Of a stretch of 64,000 nt of DNA, positions 30,864-62,996 are shown in pieces (the first letter of the stretch is position 1; every line of letters starts with the position of its first letter). Location: contig CAZDCG010000002.1 in NCBI GenBank assembly GCA_964503955.1, positions 13,047 through 77,046 on the forward strand. The letters are read 5' to 3'. The notes under the pieces are model-generated. The model was not told where the DNA came from. It ran no database searches and worked only from the letters and a program-made list of their open reading frames with translations. The stretch is from an uncultured Gammaproteobacteria bacterium (GTDB lineage: Bacteria; Patescibacteriota; Patescibacteriia; VMEV01; CAYQCH01). A program made the position numbers and the translations under genes.

Positions 30864-32477
30864 ATGCGAAGTTTGAAGCCCCATTTGCGCGGCTTTGCCG
30901 GGTACCTGATACTCGCGATTGTTGTGCTCATTGGCGCAAACGCTGTCTTTAACACCCCTGCCTTGGCGCAGGTAGATGTTGGATTGGAGCAGGCTGAGCA
31001 GATTGGACTTACAGGAACCGATCCTCGACTCATTGTCGCTCGCATTATTCAAGTAGCCCTCGGCGTGCTGGGTATCACCGCCGTGGGGCTTCTTATTTAT
31101 GCGGGCTTTTTGTGGATGACATCCGGCGGGGAAGACGAAAAAGTCGGCCGAGCAAAGACGCTTTTGCGAAATGCGTTGATCGGCTTGATCCTGATTCTGT
31201 CCGCATTTGCCATCGTGACCTATGTCTTCAGCATTTTGCGCCCTGATCTGTATTCAACGCCTCCGATCGGTTCGCGGGGAGGGATTGGCGGTATCGGAGG
31301 CGGCGGAGGTTTCCCGATCGGTGTCATCTCCTCGCATTACCCGGATCGAGGACAAACCAATGTCGCGCGCAATACCAATATCATGGTGACATTCACCGAG
31401 CCGATACTTGTTGAAAGCATTATCGATAATGCCGGAACACCAGATAATCCCGCTGATGATCGTTTAAATACGGAAAACATTTTTATCCGACGTTCGGCCG
31501 ATGATCCAAATGATGGACCTTTCGTGCCGGCCGCAGCGGCTGCGTCTGAAGACGGACGTTCCTTTGTCTTTGACCCGATTGATCTTCTTGGTTCGTCTGA
31601 AGAAAACACCCTTTATACCGTCGTGCTTGGGGAAGGAATCACGACCGCGCAGGGAAGAGGCGCATTTGGAAATTTCGGTGCCTATGCATGGGAATTTGAA
31701 GTGGGAACCTTTATCGATCTTGAGCCGCCGCAGGTGGAAAGCGTGATTCCGGCGCAGAGTTCAACGCATCCTCGCAATGTCGTGGTGCAAATCAACTTTA
31801 ATGAAGCAATGAATCCGCTTACGGCCAGCGGAGAAGTAGGGGCTGGTTTTGATGCGATCTCGATCCGCCAAGCGGACGGCAGCGTCGTGGAAGGCCGATA
31901 CATGATCAGCAATCAGTATCGGACCGTCGAATTTATCACCAATGATTTGTGCGGGAAGAATTCCTGCGGCGAAGACGTGTTTTGTTTGCCCGGAGATGCC
32001 GCACTGACAGCTCTCCTGCGTGCGGCGACAATCAGTTTGTCACCCCCTACGGCGGCTTTTCCATATGACGGATTAACGGATGCGGCGGCAAATTCGCTCG
32101 ACGGAAATCTTGACGGTTCCGCGCAAGGTCCGCAAACGGATAATTATACCTGGTCGTTTCAAACAACCAATCAAATCGATTTGACCGCGCCGGTTATTGT
32201 CTCGGTATCGCCAAATCCATTTTCTACCCAGGTCGATCTGAATGCTCCGGTTACGGCAACTTTCAGCAAACCGCTTCAATTCAGCACCATCAACCGTAAA
32301 TCGGTGAGCGTGGACGGCCTGGAAGATTACCGGTTGAATGCCAGTTCGCAAGGCGGGCAATCTCGTATCGACATTCTGCATCGAGGGCTTTTGGAAGAGA
32401 CAACCTATACGCCGGTTGTGACATCAGATGTTCGCGATCTTTATCAGAATTGTTATCGCCCTTGTGTCGGTCCTTAA
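30864..32477 (+). CDS. Surface protein with an N-terminal T4SS-pilin-like two-helix domain and SbsA-type Ig-like repeats
   Basis: Signal peptide, then IIQVALGVLGITAVGLLIYAGFLWMTSGGEDEKVGRAKTLLRNALIGLILILSAFAIVTYVF (the hydrophobic-SGG-KAK-hydrophobic pattern of CPR VirB2/TrbC-like pilin domains). Gly-rich linker GGIGGIGGGGG. At least three repeats of the PPxVxSVxPxxxxxxVxxxxxIxxxFxExM type. Confidence 0.6.
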   Translation: MRSLKPHLRGFAGYLILAIVVLIGANAVFNTPALAQVDVGLEQAEQIGLTGTDPRLIVARIIQVALGVLGITAVGLLIYAGFLWMTSGGEDEKVGRAKTLLRNALIGLILILSAFAIVTYVFSILRPDLYSTPPIGSRGGIGGIGGGGGFPIGVISSHYPDRGQTNVARNTNIMVTFTEPILVESIIDNAGTPDNPADDRLNTENIFIRRSADDPNDGPFVPAAAAASEDGRSFVFDPIDLLGSSEENTLYTVVLGEGITTAQGRGAFGNFGAYAWEFEVGTFIDLEPPQVESVIPAQSSTHPRNVVVQINFNEAMNPLTASGEVGAGFDAISIRQADGSVVEGRYMISNQYRTVEFITNDLCGKNSCGEDVFCLPGDAALTALLRAATISLSPPTAAFPYDGLTDAAANSLDGNLDGSAQGPQTDNYTWSFQTTNQIDLTAPVIVSVSPNPFSTQVDLNAPVTATFSKPLQFSTINRKSVSVDGLEDYRLNASSQGGQSRIDILHRGLLEETTYTPVVTSDVRDLYQNCYRPCVGP

Positions 32478-32480
32478 CCT

Positions 32481-35400
32481 ATGAAGCGGATTTTGCTGAC
32501 CATTTTCATCGCGCTTTCCTTCTTTCTTCCTGCTTCCTCCGTTCTGGCGCAGGAAGCGGGGGCGGATTCTCCTGTTGAAACCGTCGTCCAGGAAACATCA
32601 TCGGTAAGCACCGGCTGGAGAGTTGCGCAGATTATCGCGCTGGCCGGGGCCGTCATCAGCCTTGGCATGCTGATTTACGGGGCGGTGTTGTGGCGCAATG
32701 CCGTGCAGAATAATGATTTGCTCATGGCCGACCGCGGCCGTAATCTAACCGTCTTGTTCGGTATCGTTTTTTTCCTGTTCCTTGTTCTATTGCTTATCAG
32801 CTTTGTGGTAATTGCGCGCCAGCAGTCGCGCCAGACGGAGCAACAGCAGCAAATACAAACAACCGGTACCGGCGGATTGAGCGTTCGGGACTCACTCTTG
32901 CTTGTTGAGGCGATTCCAAATTCCGCGGTTCCTATCCGCAATGTTGCTGTTCAGCTGCTGTTCAACCAACCCGTCAGTCAGATCAATGTAGAACAGCATA
33001 TTTTGGTATCAGCGCAAGAAGGAGAAGGACCGGTGGTCGGAACCTGGACCGTGGAAGGGGAATATGCCGTCTTTCAGCCGAATCAAGCCTGTCCCGCGCC
33101 CAATCAGAATCTGCGCTGTTTTGATGCCAACCAAACCTTTGTTGTGACTATTGCACAGGAATTGACGAGCGAAGACGGGGATGCGTTCCGTTGCTCGCTT
33201 GCCGCATCTTCCGAGCAATGCCGGTTTACCTTCACGACGGGAGAAGCGGTTGATTCCACCCCTCCGACGGCGCGCATCTCCTTGCCGCTCAATGATGCCG
33301 CGGTGGCTCAGGATTCCGCGCAGCAGGTAGAAGCGCTGGCAAGCGACGATCTGGCGGTGGCTTCCTTGCACTTCTTCGCGGATGGAGAACGAATCGGCGT
33401 ATCAGCCGCGCCGGGCAATGAGTTGCAAACTTCTTTTCGGGCATCCGCCATTTGGTTGACGGAAGGGCTCGCCATTGGATCGATGCATACGATCCGGGCG
33501 GTTGCGTATGATTTCGCCGGCAGAACGGGCGAAGCAGTGCCCGTGCAGGTGGAAATTCTTCCCGCTTACTGTTTTGACGGCCAGCAGAATGAAGACGAAG
33601 AAGGGCTTGATTGCGGAGGGCCGACCTGCCGCGCCTGCCAGGGAGCGGTCTGCAGCAGCAATGAGGATTGCGCATCAGGACTTTGCTTTAACGGTGTCTG
33701 TCAGGAATTCCCGGTGATTGAAGAAGTGATTTATCCAAACGGCGCTCCGGGAAACCTTGTGACGATTCGCGGGAAGAATTTCGGATCCGAGCCTGGATCC
33801 GTGATTTTCCTTGGAGGAGCCAGTGATGCGGATAATGTACCGGGGCAGCTTCCGCCATGCGAAGCATATTGGACGAATCAGGAAGTCATTATCGAGGTTC
33901 CAGCAGGAGCTGTCAGCGGGCCGCTTCGGCTTGAAACGGCACAGGCGCTCTACGATACCACCGACGACAGCAAAGGAGAGCGCGTTGTATTTGAAGTAAA
34001 CGATCTTGTCCGTCCAACGCTCTGCGCTGTTTTGCCGCCTTCGCAACAGGTGGGGCGATCTGTTCAGATTATCGGCAAAGCGCTTGGCGAGGAACCTGGC
34101 AAGGTCTTCTTCGGACAGAATGCCGCCAGCCGCGTTCAGGGCTGGGCCGATGACATCATTTCAGAAGTTTTTCTACCATCCATGCAGGCAGGTCCGGTTT
34201 CGGTCAGCGTGGAAGCGGCTGGAGAACGAAGCAATCCTGTGCACTTCCTTGTGCAGGAATCCGATACATTGCCGTTCATTGAATCGATCACGCCTGACCG
34301 CGGACCTGTCGGACAAATGTTCAGTCTGCGCGGGCGGCATTTCACCGCATCCGCGCTGGTTCGTTTTCTTGATCCGCGGACTGGGGAAACCATCCTTGCT
34401 GATACGCGATTGCCCCGGGAATGCGAGCAATATATTTCCAATCAGCAGCGCGCGTATCGCGTGCCAAATCTCGAACCGGGAACATATCAGGTTTATCTCG
34501 AAACGGAAATCGGCCAAAGCAATAGCGTTGATTTTGTGGTCACCCGCGGAGAACGCCTGCCAGGCCTTTGCGGCATGACACCGGACAATGGCCCGCTTGG
34601 CATTGAGGTCACGCTGCACGGAGAAGGGTTTGGAAGCCAAGCCGGCGCCGTGCGGTTCACTCCGCGCATTGATGACACGCAAATTCTTTCCTGGCGCGAT
34701 AACCGCGTGCAGGCGGTTGTGCCTGCGACAGCACAGTCAGGTCCTGTACAGGTTGTGAACGCGGCGGGCGCTTTAAGCAATGCTTTGGATTTCACCATTG
34801 GAACCTGCAGCCCGGATACATGCTCTGAAGGTCTTGTTTGTTGCGGCTCAGGCTCATGCCAGGCAGCCGGCAGCTGTGCGCAGAATATTCCATACTGTTC
34901 GTATCAATGGGTCTTTAGCACAGGTGATGATCTTGGCGGGCCTCCACGGGTGATTGAAGACGCTTCCTGCAGAAGCAATACGCAAAGCCCTTCTCCGTAT
35001 AAAGACACAAAAGACGCATGTTTGAACGCGCAAATCTCGGCGCGGTTTACCCACGACATGCTCGACAACTCGCTTTCAACCGACAATATCGTTGTACATC
35101 GCTGCAATACCGGCGACTTGCTTGATTCATCTCAATGCCAGGTCGAGGTCAATCTTGCGAGTCTCACCATCATCAATGCGGGACAACCAGGCGAGGGATT
35201 CATTGCCGCGCCGCAGGTCGCTCTTGAACCGGATACCTGGTACGAAGTTGTGCTCAGCACCGGGTTTACGGCTGAAAACGGGCTATCCATGGCATCACCG
35301 TATCGTTGGGTCTTTAAAACGCAGGTGGGAGACGGCCAATGCCAGGTCGATCATATCGAAGTTACACCAGCGTCCGCCACGCTCAGGCAGCTGCTTGATC

Positions 35401-37427
35401 GACAATCCTATGCTGCTCTTCCGATCGCTTTGAATTGCAATATTCTGAATCCTGATGAATTCACCTGGGGATGGCTGAGTTCGGACACCTCAAAAGCGCA
35501 AGTATTCTTCTCAAACGAGCCTCGAAATACGGCCACGGCCGTTGGACCAACTGATCCAGAACCGCCGGTACGCATCATTGGCCAATTGCCTGAATATGGG
35601 CTTTCTGATGAAGGACTTCTTACCGTGCGTTTGCAGCCGCCGCTGGTTGTGAACAAATGGCCGAATTGCGGCTCTGCCTGCGTGAATGCAATGATCGGTG
35701 CTCGCTTTGATCAAGCCATGAATGAATCTTCCGTGACCAACACGGCCAATGTTCAGCTATTCCGTTGTGCGGATCGCACCTGCGCTCGAGAGGGGATGGT
35801 TTCATCCGGGGTTTCTTCTCTGCGGTATAACCAAACCGATCAATCCCTCTTTTTCCTGCCGGCAGCCGGCGCTCTTGCTCAGAACACAACCTATCGCGTG
35901 GTTTTAAAGAATCTGACCAGCACCAGCGGCTTGGGATTAGGAAACCTCAATTATGACAGCGATGAGACAAGGGGGCTCGACAGTTATTCCTGGGTTTTCA
36001 GCGTGAGAGACAGCGCGGACCTTTGCACGGTTGAGGATGTCGCGGTGATCCCTTCTTTTGCTTCTTCTTCACTGATTGGTGAAGAATTCGATTATTTCTC
36101 TTTGCCGCTCTCTCCGCCGGATGCCTGCAGTCCTGAAGGACAATACCTCAATCCGGAAGCATATAACTGGGGATGGGCTTCCAGCCAGGCTGCGGTTGGA
36201 ACCGTGAGCACGGACGATATTGTTCCTCCTTCAGGATTCGTCGATCCGTATCAGATCACGAGAAGTACAGGACCTGGAGAAACTTCCATTACGGCACGCA
36301 CGCAGGACGCGAGCGGTGACGGCGATTTGCTTGTTGCCTGCGGATTCCAATCCGATCTTGATTGTCCGGCTCCGGCAACCGTGGATACCTTTGGCGTCGG
36401 CTCGGATTCCTGCTGCCGCGAGCGTCCAAGTGTGCGTTCATTCAATCCGCCTTCCGGATCAGAATCTGTTTGCACGACGCTTGGTATCGAGGTGCAATTC
36501 AACCAGGAAATGAATATCAGTTCCTTGCTCAGCAATATAGTCCTTGAGCGTTTCAACGGCTCGCAGCCATGCGCCGCGGTGCAGACAACCGCCTGGCAGA
36601 GAATGAAGGGGGTTGTGCATCGACTGCTTGCCTGGATGCTTCCGCCGGCATCAGCGCAGACTGAACATTGGTGTCAGATCCCTGCCAATATTGTGGTTAC
36701 GCAATACCTGGAAGGTTCCAGAGCGACCGTTTTTCCTCAATCTGAACTTGCGCAAAATACGCAATACCGTGTGCGCGTACAGGGGGATGCGGCCATCAAT
36801 GACGGAGTGAATCAGGGAGTAAGAAGCGCCTTTGATGTTTCCATGAATGGCGATGCCGTAAGCCTGTTCAGCACGGGCGAGGCGAAATGTAATCTTGATC
36901 TTGTTGATGTGATCATCACACCTCCGGGGAAACCTGGTTCAAAAGATGTCTTCTTCTGCGCGGTTCGCAACGATTGTCCGGGGGACGTGAATCCGGCAGT
37001 AGACGGCAATCAGCATCGATATGTTGCTGTTGGGCGCGATTTACGAGGTTTTGTCGTGCCAGGCAATTACCGATGGACAACAAACTCCGGCTCATTGGCC
37101 GGCTTGAACGCAACCGACCAGCAGGAGGTTGAAGTCAGCACGCAGCCGGAAAACGGAAATGCTTATGTTACCGTTCACGCGAACGCGGTGGCACCATCGG
37201 AGGGAAGCGTTTCGCGAACCGTCATGATCAAAATCTTCCTCTGTGAAAATCCATGGCCAAGCATTCTCGATTTCCCGTATACCGACTTCGATTTCAACTA
37301 TGATACATTCTACTGCCGCGATTTTGGCGAACCTGGTGTTTTCGATGACCTTCCTCCGCTCTCATCGCCGATTGTCGGAGACGCGGTAGGGGGCTTCCTG
37401 CACGAACGATTATTCATTGTTGAATGA
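32481..37427 (+). CDS. Giant 1648-aa surface protein with an N-terminal pilin-like domain, at least three IPT/TIG domains, Ig-like domains and a Cys-rich module
   Basis: N-terminus VAQIIALAGAVISLGMLIYGAVLWRNA...LFGIVFFLFLVLLLISFVVIA. IPT/TIG-like units VIEEVIYPNGAPGNLVTIRGKNFG, IESITPDRGPVGQMFSLRGRHF and LCGMTPDNGPLGIEVTLHGEGFG. Cys-rich block CFDGQQNEDEEGLDCGGPTCRACQGAVCSSNEDCASGLCFNGVCQ. Confidence 0.65.
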   Translation: MKRILLTIFIALSFFLPASSVLAQEAGADSPVETVVQETSSVSTGWRVAQIIALAGAVISLGMLIYGAVLWRNAVQNNDLLMADRGRNLTVLFGIVFFLFLVLLLISFVVIARQQSRQTEQQQQIQTTGTGGLSVRDSLLLVEAIPNSAVPIRNVAVQLLFNQPVSQINVEQHILVSAQEGEGPVVGTWTVEGEYAVFQPNQACPAPNQNLRCFDANQTFVVTIAQELTSEDGDAFRCSLAASSEQCRFTFTTGEAVDSTPPTARISLPLNDAAVAQDSAQQVEALASDDLAVASLHFFADGERIGVSAAPGNELQTSFRASAIWLTEGLAIGSMHTIRAVAYDFAGRTGEAVPVQVEILPAYCFDGQQNEDEEGLDCGGPTCRACQGAVCSSNEDCASGLCFNGVCQEFPVIEEVIYPNGAPGNLVTIRGKNFGSEPGSVIFLGGASDADNVPGQLPPCEAYWTNQEVIIEVPAGAVSGPLRLETAQALYDTTDDSKGERVVFEVNDLVRPTLCAVLPPSQQVGRSVQIIGKALGEEPGKVFFGQNAASRVQGWADDIISEVFLPSMQAGPVSVSVEAAGERSNPVHFLVQESDTLPFIESITPDRGPVGQMFSLRGRHFTASALVRFLDPRTGETILADTRLPRECEQYISNQQRAYRVPNLEPGTYQVYLETEIGQSNSVDFVVTRGERLPGLCGMTPDNGPLGIEVTLHGEGFGSQAGAVRFTPRIDDTQILSWRDNRVQAVVPATAQSGPVQVVNAAGALSNALDFTIGTCSPDTCSEGLVCCGSGSCQAAGSCAQNIPYCSYQWVFSTGDDLGGPPRVIEDASCRSNTQSPSPYKDTKDACLNAQISARFTHDMLDNSLSTDNIVVHRCNTGDLLDSSQCQVEVNLASLTIINAGQPGEGFIAAPQVALEPDTWYEVVLSTGFTAENGLSMASPYRWVFKTQVGDGQCQVDHIEVTPASATLRQLLDRQSYAALPIALNCNILNPDEFTWGWLSSDTSKAQVFFSNEPRNTATAVGPTDPEPPVRIIGQLPEYGLSDEGLLTVRLQPPLVVNKWPNCGSACVNAMIGARFDQAMNESSVTNTANVQLFRCADRTCAREGMVSSGVSSLRYNQTDQSLFFLPAAGALAQNTTYRVVLKNLTSTSGLGLGNLNYDSDETRGLDSYSWVFSVRDSADLCTVEDVAVIPSFASSSLIGEEFDYFSLPLSPPDACSPEGQYLNPEAYNWGWASSQAAVGTVSTDDIVPPSGFVDPYQITRSTGPGETSITARTQDASGDGDLLVACGFQSDLDCPAPATVDTFGVGSDSCCRERPSVRSFNPPSGSESVCTTLGIEVQFNQEMNISSLLSNIVLERFNGSQPCAAVQTTAWQRMKGVVHRLLAWMLPPASAQTEHWCQIPANIVVTQYLEGSRATVFPQSELAQNTQYRVRVQGDAAINDGVNQGVRSAFDVSMNGDAVSLFSTGEAKCNLDLVDVIITPPGKPGSKDVFFCAVRNDCPGDVNPAVDGNQHRYVAVGRDLRGFVVPGNYRWTTNSGSLAGLNATDQQEVEVSTQPENGNAYVTVHANAVAPSEGSVSRTVMIKIFLCENPWPSILDFPYTDFDFNYDTFYCRDFGEPGVFDDLPPLSSPIVGDAVGGFLHERLFIVE

Positions 37428-37478
37428 TATTTCGTGATGCATGGAACTTTGGTATCATAGAAAGATGAAATCATTCTT

Positions 37479-40124
37479 ATGAAACGACTTTTCTTTTTCT
37501 TCGCCTTCGCGCTGCTCGCAGCACTTCCATTCGCGAATGCTCACGCGCAATCCGGTCCGCGCGACGCGATCGCCATACGCGTGGTCCCAAATCCGGATCG
37601 CATGCCGCCGCTTTTGTGGTATCGAAACAATGTCCCAAATCCCGGAGCTCCTGTTCCGCTCGAGATTGACGGATATCCTGCCGTGCGCGACGGGCGGACG
37701 GTTTACGTGGCTGCAACCAATTACGCACCTGAAGCCGGCGCGCTTTATAGTAATATCTACCTCATTTCACATAGCGAAGCGGCAGGGGAGAAGGTGCAGG
37801 CGGTTTTTGAAGAATTTCTACAGGAATTCAGATTCAACTCTAATATCGCCGATGATGAGACCCGGGCGCAGCTGCGCCGCGATATGAGGCGAGCCAATGA
37901 TCTTTATGCGATCCGGTTGAACCTGGAGCAATACCGCCTCAGAACAGGCTCGTATCCAAACTTTGAAGCGGGCAGCTATCTGCCAAATACCACGTATAGC
38001 ACGTGGCCGTCATGGCAAACGACATTAGGCAATTTGCTAGGAACTGCCTTGCCGGTTGATCCTCGCAACCAGTTTATCGGGTGTGAAGCGCCTTTTGACG
38101 GTTCAACCTGCTGGGATCAGACCGCCAGACAATTTGCTTGTCCGCCGCAAGCGTACGTGTACGGATACCGTGCAACAGGAAGCGGCGCGACCTATCAGCT
38201 ATTTGCGAATTACGAGTACAAGGGGCCTGGCAATTGGCAATCCGTTACATTGCAGCAGCAATCAGGCGACCAGTGTTTCAATTTCGCTTTTTCAGACGTT
38301 TCAGACCCTGACGGAGATGGAATCCTAACAGGAGCGGATAATTGTGAATTTGAGCATAACCCAGATCAAACTGACAGTGATGCCGACGGCATTGGCGACG
38401 CATGCGATCTCTGCCCGAATGATCCCACCAATGACCGCGATAGTGACGGTATTTGCGGCAATATCGACAATTGTCCGACGATTGGCAATCCGTCTCAGGC
38501 GGATCTTGATGATGACGGAATCGGCGATGCCTGTGATTTTCAAGGATGCGGGAACAATGTCACCGAAGGATCCGAGGTCTGCGACGGTCAGTCCGGCATC
38601 GGACCGTTTCAAAGCTGCTCCGCTGATTGCCGGTCGGTTATCCAGCTCAGTTATTGCGGCGACGGGGTGGTCAACAATCCCAATGACCAGGGACTTTTTG
38701 AAGAGTGCGATGGCAATAGTGAAGAAATCATCTGCGAACAGCGGATCAACGGCTATGTAACGCAGCGCCGAAGAGAGTGCCGCGATACCTGCCGGTTTAC
38801 GCCATTTACTGCTTGCGAACCGATTGAATATGCGGGAGACGGTATTGTTAACGGATTTGAACAATGCGACGCAGGCGATCAAAACGGTGTTCAGTGCCAG
38901 GCTGCTTATGATCAGACCTGCCAATACTGCACTTCCGATGGACGTTTTGAATTGGCTCAAGGACCAACATGCGGCGATGGAATCGTTAATGGACCGGAGC
39001 AATGTGATGAAGGCGTGAACAATGGACGCGTTTGCACGCCCGCCTATGGAAGAACGTGTACGTATTGCGGCAACTCCTGCCGCATCGAAACGGTTCCGGC
39101 TCCATTCTGCGGGGACGGGACAAGAAATATTCCGTTTGAAGAATGCGATTCTGAAGAGGAGGATATCCCTTGTGAATCGCCGCCGGGGTATTTATATAAA
39201 AAACGCTTTTGCGCCACGCAATCAACCGCTTCGAATGTCGCCTGCAGCTGGCTGCCATTTGAAGCCTGCCGCTCGATCGGTTCCTGCGGAGACGGCATGA
39301 TCAATGGTCCGGAACCATGCGATGATGCCAAAACACCTGGCTTATGTGAACAATGCAAGATCAAGGATAATACAGTGAGCCTTACCTACAATATCGAAGG
39401 GACGAGAATCGCTTCAGCATGCGTGGGCAAAAAATCAGCCTGGCCGACAAATTTCCGCTTTGGAGGAGCTATCCCATTGACAACCGCAGAATTGAATCAA
39501 ACCTGTAATAATGCGGCAATCATCAATCCCTTTACCCGGGATGGGCAGCCATTCAGTTCTCCTTGGGGATGGCCAAGAAACGGCATGCTTTCTACGCTTC
39601 CGATTTCTATGAGGGTGGAAACTATTTTCTGGCAGCATTGGAATTGCGGCGCGCATTTTGTTGCATTGCGAAATTCCGGCGTTGAGGTAACGAGCTCGCC
39701 GTTCCATGTTCCAAAACAGGGAAAACATTGCTCAAATGACTGGCAAGTTCAGGTTGTAGACACTGGCGGCGTAACAGCCGACCAAATCCTGGCGGATGAA
39801 AGCGGTTCCCAGCCAGGCCATCTCCCGGGAGGAATCCTTAAGGGGTACTACCAGTTCGGGCAGACGAGATCGATTCGAACGTCTGATCGCATCGTCGTGC
39901 TGGAGCGTCTTTCTGAACGCAGAGATACCATGGGAAATCTGCTGCCGAATGATACATATAAACTTCTCAGCACTAGCGGCAATGGATTCATGGTCTGGTT
40001 TGGAAATACCGCCACAACGCTTGCAAGCCAGGGAAGCTCTTCCACGCCAAATACCAGCACTTTCGTACTCGGCTGCGTAGATTTCGACAATAATCGCACT
40101 TGTGACTTCATGCAGGAACTATGA
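37479..40124 (+). CDS. Secreted 881-aa protein with thrombospondin type-3 calcium-binding repeats and CGDG...CD cysteine-rich repeats
   Basis: Signal peptide MKRLFFFFAFALLAALPFANAHA. TSP3-like units DPDGDGILTGADNCEFEHNPDQTDSDADGIGDACDLCPNDPTNDRDSDGICGNIDNCPTIGNPSQADLDDDGIGDACD. At least six repeats of the CGDG(V/I/T)xNxxExCD type. Confidence 0.65.
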   Translation: MKRLFFFFAFALLAALPFANAHAQSGPRDAIAIRVVPNPDRMPPLLWYRNNVPNPGAPVPLEIDGYPAVRDGRTVYVAATNYAPEAGALYSNIYLISHSEAAGEKVQAVFEEFLQEFRFNSNIADDETRAQLRRDMRRANDLYAIRLNLEQYRLRTGSYPNFEAGSYLPNTTYSTWPSWQTTLGNLLGTALPVDPRNQFIGCEAPFDGSTCWDQTARQFACPPQAYVYGYRATGSGATYQLFANYEYKGPGNWQSVTLQQQSGDQCFNFAFSDVSDPDGDGILTGADNCEFEHNPDQTDSDADGIGDACDLCPNDPTNDRDSDGICGNIDNCPTIGNPSQADLDDDGIGDACDFQGCGNNVTEGSEVCDGQSGIGPFQSCSADCRSVIQLSYCGDGVVNNPNDQGLFEECDGNSEEIICEQRINGYVTQRRRECRDTCRFTPFTACEPIEYAGDGIVNGFEQCDAGDQNGVQCQAAYDQTCQYCTSDGRFELAQGPTCGDGIVNGPEQCDEGVNNGRVCTPAYGRTCTYCGNSCRIETVPAPFCGDGTRNIPFEECDSEEEDIPCESPPGYLYKKRFCATQSTASNVACSWLPFEACRSIGSCGDGMINGPEPCDDAKTPGLCEQCKIKDNTVSLTYNIEGTRIASACVGKKSAWPTNFRFGGAIPLTTAELNQTCNNAAIINPFTRDGQPFSSPWGWPRNGMLSTLPISMRVETIFWQHWNCGAHFVALRNSGVEVTSSPFHVPKQGKHCSNDWQVQVVDTGGVTADQILADESGSQPGHLPGGILKGYYQFGQTRSIRTSDRIVVLERLSERRDTMGNLLPNDTYKLLSTSGNGFMVWFGNTATTLASQGSSSTPNTSTFVLGCVDFDNNRTCDFMQEL

Positions 40125-47781: not shown

Positions 47782-49077
47782 ATGTGCTTTATGGAACAGC
47801 AACAAACTTCTGAAACGCAAATACAAAAAGAAGAGAGCATTAATGTTTCCACGCTCAAGGGGCTTGTGACCATTGTTCTGGTGCTCGGCATCATCGCCGG
47901 TGGAACGGCGGGGGCGCTTGTCTCTGTTGTCTTGCAAAAAGGCGAATTGCCCCGCGGCGTGGACAAAGATTTGTCTCTGAATAGGAGCCAGACCATGGTT
48001 GTGGAGGAATCGTCAATCGTGCAAACAGTTCAGAATGCGTCTGAATCGGTTGTCAGTATTATCGTGGAAAAGCCGGCCTCTCAGGCGACCGGCCCCATCA
48101 GTCCTTTTTTCGACTTGAGGATCCCGGGTTTTGACATTCTCCAGCCTGATGACCGGCGCGGAAGCGATGTTGATTCGCGTTCAAACCAGGAGGAATACGT
48201 TCAGGTCAGCGCAGGAACGGGCTTTGTCGTCTCGTCTAACGGGCATATCCTGACCAATAAGCATGTTGTTCAGGACAAAGAAGCGCGCTATACCATTATT
48301 ACGAAATCCGGCGACCGCCATGAGGTGGAAGTGCTTGGTGTTGATCCGGTAAACGACCTGGCTCTCATCAAGACGAAAAACCCAGCCGAGTTGCCACCGG
48401 CGCTTGAGCTTGGAAACTCAGACCAGATTCAAATCGGCCAGCAGGTGATTGCCATTGGCAACAGTCTGGGCGAATTCAGCCATACGGTGACAAGCGGGAT
48501 TATCAGCGGTATTGATCGGCGCGTCACGGCTGGGGACGGGCTTGGTTTCTCCGAGGTTTTAGAAAAGGTCATTCAAACCGATGCGGCGATCAATCCGGGC
48601 AATTCAGGAGGCCCCTTGCTGAATCTGGCCGGCCAGGTGATCGGGGTGAATACGGCAGTCAGCCAGCAGGGACAGTTGATCGGCTTTGCGATTCCAATCA
48701 ATGATGCGGTCAGGTTTATCGAACAGATCCAGGAACATGGAAAAGTCGTCCGCCCGTATATGGGGGTACGTTATGTCCTTATCGATGAGCGCATTAAAAA
48801 GGTGAATGGGTTGTCCGTCGGTTATGGTGCGCTCCTGCGACGGGGAGATGATCCAAGCGAGCTCGCTGTCATCCCGGGAAGTCCGGCCGATAAAGCAGGG
48901 CTTGAAGAAAATGATATTCTCCTTGAGGTTGACGGGCAGAAGGTGGGCGTTGATCAGAGCCTTGTGCGCATTCTAAGCCAATACGCGCCTGGAGATGCAG
49001 TGGAACTAACGGTCTTAAAAAATGGGGAGGAGCAGCGGGTGGCGCTGGTTTTGGGAGAGTTTGCTGATGAAGGGTAA
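47782..49077 (+). CDS. HtrA/DegP-family serine protease with a PDZ domain
   Basis: N-terminal TM, then a trypsin-like fold (HILTNKHVV, DLALIK, GNSGGPLLN) and a C-terminal PDZ domain. Confidence 0.87.
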   Translation: MCFMEQQQTSETQIQKEESINVSTLKGLVTIVLVLGIIAGGTAGALVSVVLQKGELPRGVDKDLSLNRSQTMVVEESSIVQTVQNASESVVSIIVEKPASQATGPISPFFDLRIPGFDILQPDDRRGSDVDSRSNQEEYVQVSAGTGFVVSSNGHILTNKHVVQDKEARYTIITKSGDRHEVEVLGVDPVNDLALIKTKNPAELPPALELGNSDQIQIGQQVIAIGNSLGEFSHTVTSGIISGIDRRVTAGDGLGFSEVLEKVIQTDAAINPGNSGGPLLNLAGQVIGVNTAVSQQGQLIGFAIPINDAVRFIEQIQEHGKVVRPYMGVRYVLIDERIKKVNGLSVGYGALLRRGDDPSELAVIPGSPADKAGLEENDILLEVDGQKVGVDQSLVRILSQYAPGDAVELTVLKNGEEQRVALVLGEFADEG

Positions 49078-49096
49078 AAGCCTCTCTTCTTCGATC

Positions 49097-49127
49097 AAAA
49101 AAACCGCCTTTGGCGGTTTTTTTGTGG
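49097..49127. terminator. Rho-independent terminator after htrA
   Basis: aaaaaaa-accgcc-tttg-ggcggt-ttttttt. A symmetric A/T flank suggests it is bidirectional. Confidence 0.75.
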
Positions 49128-49253
49128 CCTCAATGAAGAGGTATCTCTTCGCTCAGGCCAGCGCCAGATCATACCCTTGCGAGTATATCCGGCGCGGGAA
49201 AGGCGGATCAGACGTGCTCTGATCCTTGTGGCGGTTATGCGCCGCCTTTCTTG

Positions 49254-50549
49254 CTAAAACTGGGCGGCTTCAGTGGATCCCGCGAGTGCGGTGGTCTTCA
49301 CTTCGCTGCCTTCGATCGTCTGGCGGATCTGGTCGTAGAGACCGGTCCCCACTTCCTGTTGATGCGCGGCGAACGTGTAGCCGAGCTCTCTCGCGAGGAA
49401 CTCCTCCTGCTGCAGTTCGCTGTACGCGGCCATGCCATGGTCGCGGTAGGCGCGTGCAAGCTTGAAGGAGTGATAGTTGTTGCTGTGGATTCCTGCGAGG
49501 GTCACGAACTGGAACACGTAGCCGTACTCGGCAAGTTGCGCCTGGAATGCGGCGATCTCGCCAAGATCCAGGTTGCGCCGCCAGTTGAAGGAAGGCGAGC
49601 AGTTGTACGCCAGGAGCTTGCCAGGGTGTTCAAGGAAGAACTCCTCGGCGAACTCGCGGGCGTAGCCGACATCGGGCGTGGAGGTCTCACACCAGATCAT
49701 GTCGGCGTACCTTCCATACGCCTTCGCGCGGGCGATGGCGGACTCGATCCCGTTCTGGACCTCGTAGAAACCGTTGGCATCGCGCCTGCCGGTGATGAAA
49801 GGCTGGTCACGGGGATCGATGTCGGACGTGAGCAAGGTCGCGGAGTCCGCGTCGGTTCGCGCCACAATGATGGTGGGCACGCGGTAACTGTCCGCAGCGA
49901 GCCGTGCTGCGACGAGATTCTTCTCGGCCATTCGGGTGGGGATCAGAACCTTCCCGCCCAAGTGGCCGCACTTCTTCTCACCGCCGAGCTGATCTTCGAA
50001 GTGGACGCCGGCTGCTCCAGCCTCGATCATCGCCTTCATCAGCTCAAACGCGTTCAGCGGGCTGCTTGGCGCGTCGCCGTCCGCCACCATGGGCAGGAGG
50101 AAATCGACGTAACCGTCGTCTCCAGGCAAGACACGTCTGGCCCACTGAATCTTGTCAGCCTGCTGCTGCGCCCGTGCGATCCGTCTGACAAGCGTCGGAA
50201 CGGTGTTGACGGGATACAGGGCAAGGTCCGGATACGTCGTCTCCGCCGTATTGGCGTCGGCCGCAGCCTGCCAGCCGGAGATGTAGAGCGCCTGCAAGCC
50301 CGCACGAGCGTATTGCTGCGCCTGCATGCCGGTGAGCGCTCCCAGCGTGTTCACGTAGCCGTTGCGGGCCTTGCCATGAAGCAGATCCCAGAGGCGTTCG
50401 GCCGCGTACCTGGCGTGCGGGTACTCCGGTAGGAGCGACCCGTACAGGTCAACGGCCTTGTCAGGCGCATATGGCCTGTGTACGTTCTTCCAGCGGCGAT
50501 TCTCCTTCCAGTCTTCGTTCAGAGACGCGGTCAACTTTCCCCGATCCAT
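49254..50549 (-). CDS. aceA: Isocitrate lyase
   Basis: KKCGHLGGKVL signature (K[KR]CGH). About 431 aa from MDRGKL. Local GC is about 63% against a window background of about 50%. Confidence 0.85.
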   Translation of the reverse strand: MDRGKLTASLNEDWKENRRWKNVHRPYAPDKAVDLYGSLLPEYPHARYAAERLWDLLHGKARNGYVNTLGALTGMQAQQYARAGLQALYISGWQAAADANTAETTYPDLALYPVNTVPTLVRRIARAQQQADKIQWARRVLPGDDGYVDFLLPMVADGDAPSSPLNAFELMKAMIEAGAAGVHFEDQLGGEKKCGHLGGKVLIPTRMAEKNLVAARLAADSYRVPTIIVARTDADSATLLTSDIDPRDQPFITGRRDANGFYEVQNGIESAIARAKAYGRYADMIWCETSTPDVGYAREFAEEFFLEHPGKLLAYNCSPSFNWRRNLDLGEIAAFQAQLAEYGYVFQFVTLAGIHSNNYHSFKLARAYRDHGMAAYSELQQEEFLARELGYTFAAHQQEVGTGLYDQIRQTIEGSEVKTTALAGSTEAAQF

Positions 50550-50817
50550 GGGCCTACCTTTCAGATTGGCCCCCCCAACAAGTGTTTCCCACATGACAAC
50601 TGAAGAAAGAACGCGCATCTCCGTTTGCTTTCACAATCAGAACCCTGCGATCACCTGGAGATGCTGAAAAAGCGTAACAGGAACATTGAATTCTTGTCAA
50701 TTGGTGACGATAGTGTTTGAAAGAGAAAGAAAGGCTAATGTCAGCAAAATTTGACGACAGTTTGCAAAAAGTGCCTATTCACCCAAAAAAACAATGTTTT
50801 TGCGATCTTGGGTCATG

Positions 50818-50852
50818 CCGGTCGCTCTACCCGTAAAGGGGAGCGACCGGCT
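50818..50852. other. Perfect 11-bp-stem hairpin between the 291-aa gene and aceA
   Basis: gccggtcgctc-tacccgtaaaggg-gagcgaccggc. Confidence 0.5.
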
Positions 50853-50887
50853 GACGTAGATCGGGCTCAACTCTGCAAAGCCTACGT

Positions 50888-51763
50888 CTAGCGCGAAAGA
50901 ACTTGCTCAAGCTTGCGGATGACCTCAATCAGAGGGTCGGGGCCTCCGAGTGTAAACGAAATGATCTGGCCGCAGGTGCGCCTGATGTGGTTACTGAACA
51001 CGCCATTTTCATCCATCTCCTCCCAATAGACGAGGCTGATGAAGCTTGCTAAGAGGCCTTCGCATCGCCAGGCCTGTTCTTGCCGGTCATCAGGCAGGGC
51101 TACCTCAAAGAGCTGATCCTCCCAGTCTCGTTGCCTGTCCAGAGTCTCCCCAGCAAAGCCCGTGATGCTTCGAGCACGGATAGCGCGGTACTGTTGGCGC
51201 AGTTGGTCAAAGCGGCGATGAATCTCCTCTTTGTCATTCAGCGACCTGAGAAGATCCTTTTGAGTAAACAATGTTTCAGCAACTTCCGGAGAGAAGCAGC
51301 ATGAGGCAATCCTCAGAAAGCAGAATGCTTCTATGGCGTGTATTTCCGGATGCGAAACCATGAACGGGAAATCTCCTTCACCGCATTGCACCAAGAGGGT
51401 GAATCGAAGAACGCTTCGGGGTTCCCAATCGGTAAAGGAAGAAAGGAGGTCTCTGACTCCGTTAATGGAGTCAACCTCAAGCGGTTCTCTACCGGTGGCG
51501 AGGATCGCGGGGCCGTAACCGCAATGGGCGGCAAGCTCCAGCATCTCGCGTGGGAGATCACCTACGCTGACGCGTTCAAGAAGGTAAGTGGCCTCATCTT
51601 GGGCCAAACCTGTTTCCTTCCACTTGCGCTCAAGCCTACGCAATCGAGAGTCCGTCACTTCTGCCTCGTAGAGTCCCGCAAGGAACAAGCATGGGAAAGA
51701 GCAAACGTTGATATCCACCAGCCCAAAAAAATAAAAGAAACTTGCCAAAATGTCAAGAAACAC
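50888..51763 (-). CDS. Hypothetical protein (291 aa)
   Basis: Long ORF upstream of aceA on the same strand. No recognised motifs. The true start may be internal. Confidence 0.35.
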   Translation of the reverse strand: MFLDILASFFYFFGLVDINVCSFPCLFLAGLYEAEVTDSRLRRLERKWKETGLAQDEATYLLERVSVGDLPREMLELAAHCGYGPAILATGREPLEVDSINGVRDLLSSFTDWEPRSVLRFTLLVQCGEGDFPFMVSHPEIHAIEAFCFLRIASCCFSPEVAETLFTQKDLLRSLNDKEEIHRRFDQLRQQYRAIRARSITGFAGETLDRQRDWEDQLFEVALPDDRQEQAWRCEGLLASFISLVYWEEMDENGVFSNHIRRTCGQIISFTLGGPDPLIEVIRKLEQVLSR

Positions 51764-51898
51764 GTAAAAAAGAAAGTGGTTTGTGTACCAGATCCAAATC
51801 CCGCAACCCGTTAACGCGTAAACCCGTTAACTTTATTCGTAGACATTCGCCCGCCTGCCAAAGGCTCGTAGCAATGGCGGGCAGGTATTCGTACCCTT

Positions 51899-53000
51899 AT
51901 GAAACACATCATCGCTAATCTCGATAACCTTGCTGGGCGGGTTGACGAGGCATGGAGGTTACTTTGACCTGGACTCGTCTTTAGCGAGAATCAAAGAACT
52001 TCTGTCTATTACAGCCGATCCGAATTTTTGGTCGAACCAGGAAAAAGCAACGGCCATCAATCAGGAACTCAGCGATTTGCAAAAAGAAGTCGATCTTTGG
52101 CAGGGAATCCGTTCAGAGATTCAGGATGCTTTAGATTTGGCCAATGTAGCTCAGTCGGAAGGAGATGAGTCGTTCCATGATGAGCTGATGAAGCGGACGG
52201 AGGAACTAACGGCCAAGTTTGAAAAAATGGAATTTCTCATGCTGTTTGATGGAGAATACGACAAGAGTAACGCTATCTTAGCCTTTCATGCCGGCTCGGG
52301 GGGAACGGAAGCACAAGATTGGACGGAAATGCTTTTTCGCATGATCAGCCGTTTTATCGAACAGCAGGAGTGGAAAGCCGAAATCCTTGATATGAATCGC
52401 GGCCAGGAAGCCGGCATCAAGAGCGCGATTATCCGCGTGCAGGGAAGATACGCCTATGGATATTTAAAATCCGAAAACGGTGTTCATCGGCTGGTACGCA
52501 TCTCTCCGTTTGACGCGGAGCAGATGCGCCATACGTCTTTTGCCATGATTGAGGTCATGCCCGAACTGGATGAAACCATCCATATCGAGATCGACCCGAA
52601 AGATTTGCGCATTGATACCTTTGCGGCCGGCGGCAAAGGCGGGCAGAAGGTGAATACGACGAATTCAGCCGTCCGCATCGTGCATTTGCCCACAAAAATT
52701 TCCGTCAGCTGCCAGAATGAACGTTCACAGGGGCAAAATAAAGAAACAGCCATGAAGATTCTGAAAGCCAAGCTTCACCAGCTTGAATTGCAGAAGCAGG
52801 CCGCGCAAAAAAAGGAGCTGCGGGGCGAGTATACCAGCGCTGAATGGGGCAGCCAGATCCGATCCTATGTTTTGCATCCGTATAAAATGGTTAAAGACCA
52901 TCGCACGTCGCACGAATCCAAGGAACCGGACCGAGTGCTCGACGGAGAATTGGGGCCGTTTATGGAAGCCTATTTGCGTTGGAGAAAAGAGGCAGCCTAG
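51899..53000 (+). CDS. prfB: Peptide chain release factor 2 with a programmed +1 frameshift
   Basis: Frame 0: ATG at 51899 then MKHIIANLDNLAGRVDEAWRLL, ending at the in-frame TGA at 51965-51967 in the context ggaggttaCTTTGAC. Frame +1 continues DLDSSLARIKE... through the SPF and GGQ domains (AAGGKGGQKVN). Confidence 0.9.
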
Positions 53001-58807: not shown

Positions 58808-59359
58808 TTGCCCTTCCTGCTAAGTTACCCCGTCACAAGGATGTTTAAGGAAGGAGTGACAAGCGTGTACAAGGTCGGATTCGCCAGGCCGGACAGGAAG
58901 CTGCGGCCGCACCTGGAAAAGGTGTTCGGCACGCTGAACTGGGTACTGTGTGATCTGGACAGGGTCGATGCCATCTGGCGTGACATCCATCTTGTCCTGG
59001 TTTCCACCGCGATCGAGCTGCCCAAGTCGGGCGCCGTTTCGACCGCGTTCAATTACGAGTGGAGGGAAATCGTTCACAGGATTCGCGAGCGTGATGCAAC
59101 CATTCCGGTCGCCATGGTCACCTCGATTCCCTCCAACCACTTCGACGGCATGCTCAAGCCCATGCTTGAAGCCCGCCTTGGCGAGGGCGTGCAGCTGGTC
59201 AAGGTCGAGGAGGGCGCGCAGGGAAATCCCGCGCTTGGTCTGCCCAAAACGCTTGTGGTGATCGGCGAGGCCGACATGAACGCCCGCAAGGGACCTGTCG
59301 ACGCTCAGCTGATCGGGAGGATTCTGGATGCGCATATCCGGAATCGGCGAAGTGTTTGA
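58808..59359 (+). CDS. Hypothetical protein in a GC-rich segment
   Basis: Coherent-looking protein on + (VYKVGFARPDRKLRPHLEKVFGTLNWVLCDL...), while the overlapping minus-strand ORF is R/G/P-rich junk. A likely start is near the RBS aaggaagga at 58844-58852, followed by GTG/ATG. Confidence 0.35.
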   Translation: MPFLLSYPVTRMFKEGVTSVYKVGFARPDRKLRPHLEKVFGTLNWVLCDLDRVDAIWRDIHLVLVSTAIELPKSGAVSTAFNYEWREIVHRIRERDATIPVAMVTSIPSNHFDGMLKPMLEARLGEGVQLVKVEEGAQGNPALGLPKTLVVIGEADMNARKGPVDAQLIGRILDAHIRNRRSV

Positions 59360-61439: not shown

Positions 61440-62996
61440 TCAGCGGAACAGGAGCTGGATCACTTCGTTCAGTTCTTCGCGACTGATGGCCTTGGCTCGG
61501 TAGTAGGCAAGAAGGAGACGTAGGGTCACTGTTCTCCTCCCGCTCCTCAGGTTGTGACAGGCTTGTGGCGACTTCTTGATCAGTCGAAACACCATCGCAT
61601 CAGATCGCGAGTTGGTCATTGCCTTCAGGCGATCGAGGACGATGCCGTTCCTCGCCTTCCATCCACTACGCTCTGTCGCGGAGAATGGAACTGGTCGACC
61701 CCGATGTGCAGGAGCTGTCATCCACCCTGTTGCTGATAGTGGGTTGGCCTTGTAGGCGATGAGCCGTTCGGTGGCCCGATAAGGCAGTTCCTCTTTCAGG
61801 CAGATATCGGAGATTTCCATCAAAGAGATCTGCTGCCATCGGTCGATGACGGGCCGGAGCTTCTCGGCTTGATCAGGGCTCATGAACCGCAGAAGGAGAT
61901 CTTGCGGGATGCTCTCTTCTTGCTCGGGCTGGAGCCTCCTCGAGAAGTACCGGGCTACTCGCGACTGAATTCGGCATTCCCGAATCGACATCTCATCGGC
62001 CAGTTTCAGGAAGGCCGAGGCGCGCTTTGCGCTTGCCGCCAGCTTATACAGCGCGCCCAGGGCTTGGCATCGAGCCGCGCAGATCAGGTTGCTCGCCGCG
62101 TAAACATCGCAGGTGCAAGCGATGCGGAGTCCGCTTGCCAGCCCCTGGTACGAAAAGTCGAGTTCCAGTGTTGCCGTGCGCATGGGTGGCATCCACCAGT
62201 GCTGTTCATCTTCGTACGAGTAGACGTCACTCGTCGCGTCGGTAAACCACAGTTCGTAGGGGCGTTCGAGCCCGTCCGTCGCGACAGTCAGACGGTCGGC
62301 TGTTTGGCTGAGGCATCGTTGTCCAGCAACATACCTGATCGCTGCCAGGATTTCCTCACTGGGCTTCGAGAACAGCCGTACTAGTTCTACCCGAAGCTCC
62401 TCTGAGTACGGCAGGTTCCCGACGGCGTGTGCGGCATGGCCGCGCACGAGAGGAAGGGGGTTGAACAGGTGGCCGATCAGCATGAACCGGATCTGCGCGA
62501 AGTTTCCCCACTTCGGCAGGCTGGGAAGCTGACCCAAGAGCTCGAGGGCTTCCTGCACAGGGTGCCGACCATTGGCCTTGAGCATGACCATCAAATCTTC
62601 GCTGAGGCGACCTTGCCTGGAGCGCGACATCCCCTGGAGCAGGTAAGCATAAGCCTTGGCCGGAGCAAGCATGGTCTTTGAAGCCCAGCTGGGATGATCG
62701 ATGTCGTCGTCGATCTCGGAGTGGCCACGTAAGGCCTCCTCGAGAGAGGCGTTGATCGCCTCCCGTATACGCGGATCTTCTGATCCGTCACTGGCCAGGA
62801 TGATCTCGTCGATCAGAGGGATCAGCTCAGATCGTCTGGTCACGTGTGCGGCCAGCTCGCTGATCGCGGTGGCCAGAATCTTTGGGTTGCCGTTTCTGGC
62901 AAATGCGAGCAGCATGGTCTTCCTCCTTAGGTTTTTGTGTTTTTCATCCTCAGGATGAGGGTGGCTCAGAGTACCCATTTTTGTTGAAATTGTCAA
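61440..62996 (-). CDS. Hypothetical 518-aa protein (GC about 58-60%)
   Basis: Long minus-strand ORF with elevated GC. No recognisable catalytic motifs. Probably a helical repeat protein. Confidence 0.5.
   Translation of the reverse strand: MTISTKMGTLSHPHPEDEKHKNLRRKTMLLAFARNGNPKILATAISELAAHVTRRSELIPLIDEIILASDGSEDPRIREAINASLEEALRGHSEIDDDIDHPSWASKTMLAPAKAYAYLLQGMSRSRQGRLSEDLMVMLKANGRHPVQEALELLGQLPSLPKWGNFAQIRFMLIGHLFNPLPLVRGHAAHAVGNLPYSEELRVELVRLFSKPSEEILAAIRYVAGQRCLSQTADRLTVATDGLERPYELWFTDATSDVYSYEDEQHWWMPPMRTATLELDFSYQGLASGLRIACTCDVYAASNLICAARCQALGALYKLAASAKRASAFLKLADEMSIRECRIQSRVARYFSRRLQPEQEESIPQDLLLRFMSPDQAEKLRPVIDRWQQISLMEISDICLKEELPYRATERLIAYKANPLSATGWMTAPAHRGRPVPFSATERSGWKARNGIVLDRLKAMTNSRSDAMVFRLIKKSPQACHNLRSGRRTVTLRLLLAYYRAKAISREELNEVIQLLFR

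Follow-up and report, generated by a model that had tools for sequence, protein, structure and literature searches.

A 64,000-nt stretch of contig CAZDCG010000002.1 (hereafter the window) carries, in the spacer between htrA and prfB, a gene for isocitrate lyase (ICL), which is the subject of this analysis. The host is a Parcubacteria-like bacterium from the Candidate Phyla Radiation (CPR): those best matches of its HtrA that carry names belong to Parcubacteria or Patescibacteria, and the window has content typical of CPR, including a type IV secretion system (T4SS) pilin-like protein, giant Ig/TSP3 surface proteins, ComEC, FtsA, FtsZ, MraY, NrdR and an F-type ATP synthase. The left flank of the locus is htrA (47782..49077, plus strand), which by Pfam encodes an S1C protease with a PDZ domain. 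The right flank is prfB, the gene of release factor 2 (RF2; 51899..53000, plus strand), recognised by the Pfam domains PCRF and RF-1; homology to relatives begins on this side at 51898. Between them lies a spacer of 2.8 kb (49078-51898), which holds the ICL gene (49254..50549, minus strand, 431 aa) and, closer to prfB, a second minus-strand gene of 256 aa ('ORF291', 50888..51658).

An earlier note on this DNA had recognised a full-length isocitrate lyase with a KKCGHLGG motif, and the 431-aa open reading frame (ORF) and the motif, at residues 192-199, bear this out. The protein is of AceA type. It scores above the curated cut-off of the AceA equivalog model (NCBIfam NF011645, 623.6 bits vs 562) and above those of TIGR01346 (526.4 bits, cut-off 275.9) and Pfam PF00463 (337.7 bits, cut-off 26; 1.4e-100). 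It also matches Pfam PEP_mutase (1.7e-11), and its closest matches in the PDB are 3lg3 from Yersinia pestis (E 5e-162) and 1igw from E. coli (1e-158). A longer, 454-aa reading that extends to 50618 was rejected, as the upstream extension is supported neither by homologues nor by the conserved ribosome-binding site (RBS). Also rejected was a 393-aa ORF antisense to the ICL (49251-50432, plus strand), a shadow ORF typical of high-GC coding DNA and no gene.

Residues were mapped by pairwise alignment to Mycobacterium tuberculosis ICL1, whose sequence was verified against 5DQL_A. The catalytic loop K192-K193-C194-G195-H196 aligns to K189-H193 of ICL1, and the residues kept, in M. tuberculosis numbering, are Y89, S91, G92, W93, D108, D153, H180, E182, K189-H193, R228, E285, N313, S315, S317 and T347. 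In ICL1, G92, S315 and S317 are substrate or Mg-site residues. Roles in ICL1 have been assigned to S91, W93, D108, D153, E182, R228, E285, N313 and T347 (PMC8099091), and Cys191 of ICL1 is the general acid of the catalytic loop (PMC7609661). The AlphaFold2 (AF2) model of the ICL has a mean predicted local distance difference test score (pLDDT) of 81 and a predicted TM-score (pTM) of 0.85, with low values at residues 98-113, in the catalytic loop and in the C-terminal lid.

Comparison with AceA and ICL1 (NF011645, TIGR01346, PF00463; 1IGW, 3LG3, 1F8I/5DQL) shows a protein of the same length class, likewise above the equivalog cut-off, that shares the KKCGH loop, the S-G-W glyoxylate site, D108, D153, H180, E182, R228, E285, the NCSPS motif, T347 and the C-terminal lid sequence. 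It is unlike them in that its identity to known ICLs does not exceed 61%, where ICLs from different phyla reach 64-77%, in having no adjoining aceB or aceK, and in lying in a CPR genome. The earlier note had also considered a member of the superfamily with a different substrate, such as methylisocitrate. The family models lend this no support, since the AceA cut-off is passed and those of PrpB are failed (TIGR02317, 89 bits vs 354; NF008455, 62 vs 353), as are those of the other superfamily models. No prp genes (prpC, prpD) were found by a Pfam scan of every ORF of at least 150 aa in the window. The TIM-barrel is common to the PrpB/PEP-mutase superfamily, but the protein exceeds PrpB (TIGR02317, NF008455) by ~135 residues, and its KKCGH loop and C-terminal lid are specific to ICL. 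Judged by its sequence, it is thus an ICL family member by every tested criterion except one, the conserved metal-loop motif. This motif, D-x-E-A-G-F-G-G in 119/119 of the closest homologues, is not matched: the window's ICL reads D157-G-D159-A-P-(gap)-S-S. PrpB-type enzymes use a D-x-D metal motif, and in this point the protein resembles them, with D-x-D in place of the D-x-E of bacterial ICLs. The altered loop lowers confidence in canonical kinetics, though not in the predicted family membership, and as the Mg-site loop is unusual the specificity may be changed or broadened.

The position of the gene is best understood from related genomes. In three relatives whose HtrA is 67-71% identical to that of the window (L005-L007; L008-L009, GCA_964352335.1; and one contig of the Joint Genome Institute, JGI), htrA is followed directly by prfB across a spacer of ~105-150 nt. 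The collinear order comprises YbeY, FtsA, FtsZ, M23, NrdR, a small ORF, HtrA, PrfB, an epimerase, ComEC and a metallo-beta-lactamase (MBL). Because the same spacer measures 2.8 kb in the window, the ICL gene and its neighbour are a lineage-specific insertion. In L095, a fourth relative (HtrA 70%), the spacer is occupied by two ORFs on the minus strand, 231 and 254 aa long (4436-6005 of L095), both homologous to the second gene of the window and paralogues of each other; in a more distant genome (L096, HtrA 61%) synteny is lost. With an empty spacer in three relatives and other cargo in the fourth, the site is therefore a variable-cargo hotspot, a small recombination hotspot at which strains exchange cargo. 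Of the species compared at the htrA-prfB spacer, only that of the window has the ICL. Its junctions are reproduced in Logan contigs from six runs, including SRR11843815, -16, -27, -34 and -36 (97-100% identical), and contigs from SRR11843827, -16 and -15 match the window at 99.99-100% identity. One of the contigs (L003) covers the whole stretch from upstream of htrA past prfB into the epimerase gene, the htrA-ICL junction is present in three others (L001, L002, L004), and the prfB edge is reached by L090.

The ICL gene also differs from its surroundings in composition. Its G+C content (GC) is 62.4% vs 50.8% for the window, and a sample at 49261-49320, for which the earlier note had given about 63% against a background of about 50%, measures 63.3%. 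When GC is taken in 1365-bp windows, the maximum falls on the ICL region (0.624 vs a mean of 0.508, sd 0.028), and GC at third codon positions (GC3), at 0.792, exceeds that of every other gene among the 47 compared (mean 0.560, sd 0.059, z ~3.9). The dinucleotide signature deviates as well (0.140 vs 0.066, sd 0.024; z about 3). The synonymous codon likelihood per gene does not separate the ICL (-1.138 vs a mean of -1.113), and the call of foreign composition is based on GC3 and the dinucleotide signature, not on codon likelihood. The family is not intrinsically GC-rich, because the ICL genes of 13 other bacteria track the GC of their own loci to within ~5 points; here the excess is 11.7 points. 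Both minus-strand genes of the spacer had been described as GC-rich. This holds for the ICL, but the second gene has typical values (GC 53.0%, GC3 0.58), and the GC island therefore consists of the ICL and its 3' flank only (~49126-50600). On a larger scale, the GC of the window (50.8%) stands against 37-41% in the collinear relatives L005, L008 and L095 (HtrA 67-71% identical); in the window's lineage, GC has shifted strongly across the whole genome.

Horizontal acquisition of the ICL, proposed in the earlier note, is backed by four mutually independent kinds of evidence: composition, synteny, the absence of Patescibacteria among the best matches and the reproducible junctions. Candidate donors were sought by a word search of 5.8 billion proteins, among GTDB species representatives and in JGI metagenome contigs. 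Patescibacteria are absent from the named entries (about a quarter) of the 120 best protein matches and from the best 80 GTDB loci, the top GTDB match being a metagenome-assembled genome (MAG) of Ktedonobacterales. The ICL is equidistant (56-61%) from the ICLs of Chloroflexota, Bacillota, Actinomycetota and Pseudomonadota, which share 64-77% with one another across clades. To the 119 best homologues it is on average 58.7% identical (maximum 61%), while these average 73.7% among themselves, and in a neighbour-joining tree it forms a long branch at the midpoint root, with no sister group. Its composition fits a donor genome of ~60-65% GC, and either the donor is unsampled or the gene is fast-evolving.

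Strain variation bears on how the gene has been kept. Contigs L001 (SRR11843834) and L090 (SRR11843836) represent a second haplotype, which retains the ICL with its 3' flank as well as the prfB-proximal DNA (51728-51897) and lacks 50760-51727, with the second gene and a hairpin, having 28 nt in place of this segment. The ICL coding sequences of the two haplotypes are 99.4% identical. Between L090 and the window 8 codons differ, 7 of them synonymously and 1 by a conservative replacement (V294I), which gives a dN/dS of 0.043 (binomial P 2.5e-4 for at least 7/8 synonymous). The ICL is under purifying selection. Its dS (0.023) is close to that of the 3' end of htrA (0.025, measured against L001, of the same haplotype), and the ICL is therefore older than the strain split.

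The expression signals of the ICL (50547..50700, minus strand) emerge from reading the sequence together with the strain comparison; the promoter was missed by a consensus scan. They comprise a -35 box TTGACA (50700-50695), an extended -10 element TGTTACGCT (50679-50671), a predicted transcription start near 50664 and, downstream of the 5' untranslated region (UTR), the RBS with its start codon, AAAGGTAGG + ATG (50561-50547). The two boxes and the RBS with ATG are 100% identical between the two haplotypes, whereas the 15-nt promoter spacer is 53% and the 5' UTR 65.5% identical (a leader diverged by 35-47%). Invariant boxes inside a diverged leader thus point to a functional ICL promoter. The leader (50562-50694, minus strand) shows a ~15-fold excess of non-coding over synonymous divergence relative to L001/L090, a pattern resembling the local replacement of an allele or a mutation hotspot. 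The fold of the 5' UTR is no more stable than those of shuffled sequences (z -0.5).

At the other end of the gene, the GC-rich 3' UTR (49126..49253, minus strand, 128 nt) folds into three strong consecutive hairpins (-71.7 kcal/mol, z -8.8 vs shuffles) and runs into a bidirectional intrinsic terminator, CAAAAAAACCGCC-TTT-GGCGGTTTTTTTG (49096..49124). This is a 13-bp perfect inverted repeat flanked by an A-run and a T-run, common to htrA on the plus strand and the ICL transcript on the minus strand, and it marks the left edge of the insertion. The hairpin region is 100% identical in every strain contig, L001 and L090 among them, and Rfam gives no family match in the window, this region included. 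The 3' UTR was probably imported together with the gene.

The second gene lies in a strain-variable cassette of 968 bp (50760..51727, minus strand), delimited by blastn and alignment of L001 and L090 and bracketed at both ends by TTTTTTGGG direct repeats. In most of the 150 best matches listed, residue 1-2 aligns to residue 36-37 of the ORF, and a GAGG box stands 5 nt upstream of the GTG at 51658; the gene is therefore taken to span 50888-51658. A sigma-70-like promoter, TTGACA-17-TATTTT (51728..51756, minus strand; 10/12 matches in a consensus scan), leads into it and lies in DNA common to both haplotypes, being retained in L001 and L090. A word-based homologue search was near-empty and multi-domain relatives were uninformative; an exhaustive HMMER search recovered 989 library proteins at E<=0.001, about 1000 unnamed relatives. 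The proteins of this family have ~200-250 aa, a conserved N-terminal domain of ~58 aa (MxDxRLRxLERxWKExG...LELAAxxGx) and a C-terminal PWxLGxxDP-like motif. The product of the second gene is predicted to be all-alpha; it has no match in Pfam, NCBIfam or PADLOC, and its AF2 model (pLDDT 74) has no fold match in the PDB.

The perfect hairpin with an 11-bp stem that the earlier note had placed in this region is real, with coordinates shifted by one: its arms lie at 50817-50827 and 50841-50851 (minus strand). All 11/11 bp are paired around a 13-nt loop, the fold has a z of -7.7, and the element sits 36 nt downstream of the stop of the second gene, inside the variable cassette. It is likely a 3'-end structure or a non-canonical terminator of that gene, called non-canonical because no U-tract follows directly. 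A role as a repeated element was dismissed, as both arms are unique in the window. The second gene is separate from the ICL: it belongs to a strain-variable cassette, and its family recurs at the same locus in the relative L095.

Between this cassette and prfB, the right-edge intergenic DNA of the insertion (51805..51886) contains the direct repeat AACCCGTTAAC twice (51805, 51821) and, just 5' of prfB, a GC-rich hairpin (~51849-51886) whose fold is only slightly more stable than those of shuffled sequences (z about -2). The start of prfB is the ATG at 51899, rather than the TTG at 51930 with which the ORF begins. A programmed +1 frameshift site, CTT TGA C (51962-51968), is preceded by GGAGG, and the motif is kept in the CPR relatives L005 (9471-9540) and L008 (9469-9538).

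Elsewhere in the window, two ORFs besides the ICL are outliers in GC3, the ICL being the strongest. One (61440-62996, minus strand) encodes 518 aa and combines a GC3 of 0.68 (0.678) with the strongest dinucleotide deviation of the window (z 3.5); the other (58808-59359, plus strand) encodes 172-183 aa and has a GC3 of 0.745. Neither has a Pfam or NCBIfam match, and they may be additional foreign genes. Several proteins of the window are very large, among them the Ig/TSP3-repeat surface proteins (30864-40124) and a 1412-aa ORF (11701-15939, minus strand), which has no Pfam match, a GC of 45.6% and a strongly negative AT skew.

As to the metabolic context, the earlier note had seen no malate synthase or tricarboxylic acid (TCA) cycle genes in the window, and the Pfam scan of ORFs of at least 150 aa likewise detected none; a few kb of extra flank add no malate synthase, TCA or glyoxylate genes. 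Its description of the ICL as an orphan enzyme of the glyoxylate shunt stands for the 64-kb window and these flanks; as a statement about the genome it goes further than the DNA covered. CPR bacteria (Patescibacteria) are thought to be without a TCA cycle and dependent on hosts.

We consider it probable (about 0.75) that the htrA-prfB spacer holds a horizontally acquired and selected ICL which probably acts as a stand-alone enzyme, its physiological role being read from context. The main cargo of the insertion in this Parcubacteria-like CPR bacterium would be an AceA-type ICL, acquired most likely from an unsampled lineage with ~60-65% genomic GC. The gene appears to have arrived as a self-contained unit, with its own sigma-70-type promoter, its RBS and a multi-hairpin 3' end that abuts the htrA terminator; it is intact, and purifying selection keeps it in the population. 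The enzyme would most likely convert isocitrate to succinate and glyoxylate in a Mg2+-dependent reaction, with Cys194 as general acid. It would probably act by itself on organic acids acquired from a host or the environment, as no partner genes lie nearby and CPR cells are generally TCA-poor. More speculatively, it could supply glyoxylate (e.g. for glycine/serine) and succinate, or run in the reverse direction as a condensation. The neighbouring 256-aa gene has a separate history, as a member of a cassette family present at the same hotspot in a relative.

Several observations weigh against this acquisition of a working ICL. There is no tRNA in the window, no integrase or transposase ORF in the insert (by the ORF list and Pfam), and no convincing flanking direct or inverted repeat or clear target duplication around the ICL segment. 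Neither a donor nor a sister of more than 61% identity was found in the protein collection, the GTDB representatives or the JGI contigs, so the direction and the source of the transfer are read from synteny and composition only, and the long branch sits uneasily with the un-ameliorated GC3. Further, of 194 near-invariant columns (at least 97% conserved in a set of the 119 closest, diverse ICL homologues) the window's ICL departs at 25; among the other ICLs the median number of departures is 0 and the largest is 10. The departures include E155D, the replacement of the AGFGG loop by AP-SS with one deletion, Q109L, S110A and R130Q, and given these changes full ICL activity would not be assured. 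The same changes argue for an ICL with a new or broadened function, its substrate or metal preference altered after transfer or already in the donor lineage: E155 corresponds to a second-shell Mg ligand, and Q109L and S110A adjoin the catalytic D108. Such an enzyme could use 2-methylisocitrate or a different 2-hydroxy-acid as substrate, or work mainly in the direction of condensation, and would have no role in a glyoxylate shunt. ICL1 of M. tuberculosis is itself bifunctional, acting on isocitrate and methylisocitrate. The lack of a shunt partner in the window agrees with this, as does purifying selection, which implies that the activity matters. However, the protein exceeds the AceA equivalog threshold and falls far short of those of PrpB and the other superfamily models, the glyoxylate- and succinate-contacting residues of ICL1 are all retained together with the KKCGH loop, and prpC and prpD are not found nearby. 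A new function is on balance unlikely, and equally doubtful is its extension that a CPR epibiont has domesticated a lone, remodelled ICL (AP-SS loop, E155D) with an altered substrate, metal or direction. If true, the remodelled ICL could make glyoxylate and succinate from host-derived tricarboxylates, or condense them, and would represent a new functional subtype of ICL and a new metabolic shortcut for ultra-small symbionts.

The altered invariant residues might also mark a non-functional or transient passenger, picked up recently at the hotspot, without a role in the cell and not yet purged. Cargo that varies here between strains and species, the un-ameliorated composition and the missing pathway context would all suit such a gene, but we regard it as very unlikely: the ORF is intact, synonymous changes prevail over non-synonymous ones 7 to 1 (dN/dS 0.043, P 2.5e-4), a dS equal to that of the flanking htrA dates the gene before the strain split, the ICL is present in all three haplotypes seen, unlike its neighbour, and its promoter boxes and RBS have stayed the same in a leader that has otherwise diverged. 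Composition could also be explained without any transfer if a native, vertically inherited ICL had become GC-rich by local heterogeneity, e.g. by GC-biased gene conversion at a hotspot of recombination, in a lineage of rising GC. The GC of the window relative to its syntenic relatives, the two other GC3-rich genes and the hotspot cargo of L095, ~6-7 GC points above its flanks, speak for this. Yet four relatives lack the ICL in the same spacer, Patescibacteria are missing from the named best 120 proteins and the best 80 GTDB loci, and the adjacent cassette in the same hotspot keeps an ordinary GC3 of 0.58, which makes vertical inheritance highly improbable. The sharp compositional step at the gene borders would, finally, be expected of an assembly chimera or binning contamination, in which a high-GC fragment was joined to a CPR contig. 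With the htrA-ICL junction, the side towards prfB or the two together present in the assemblies of SRR11843815, -16, -27, -34 and -36, and with an ICL transcript that terminates at the bidirectional terminator of the host's htrA, an artefact of this kind is scarcely credible.

Horizontal gene transfer into Patescibacteria has been documented (PMC12455944), and pooled groundwater CPR genomes have been reported to contain ICL without malate synthase (PMC12114108). The window resembles those islands and ICL cases in that a single metabolic gene occurs in a streamlined CPR genome, malate synthase is not detected (here, in the window) and the donor is not recovered. It is unlike them (PMC12455944; PMC12114108) in that the insertion site is resolved at base level through syntenic relatives, together with purifying selection and strain variation, and unlike classical islands in having no integrase, prophage or tRNA. 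As both transfer into CPR and ICL without malate synthase were already known, the advance is incremental unless a new activity is proven, and the locus looks like a clear instance, though one with precedents, of a minimal cell that has borrowed a single metabolic enzyme. Among the AceA-type ICLs in the collections searched, this one is the most divergent; its metal loop is unlike those of all 119 closest homologues, and it is hence a cheap target for biochemistry. The locus further documents a hotspot between two housekeeping genes whose cargo is swapped between strains. Above all, it provides a base-resolved, population-supported case of a CPR cell gaining and keeping one enzyme of central carbon metabolism, partnerless within 64 kb, and thereby a handle on the metabolites that CPR cells take from their surroundings.

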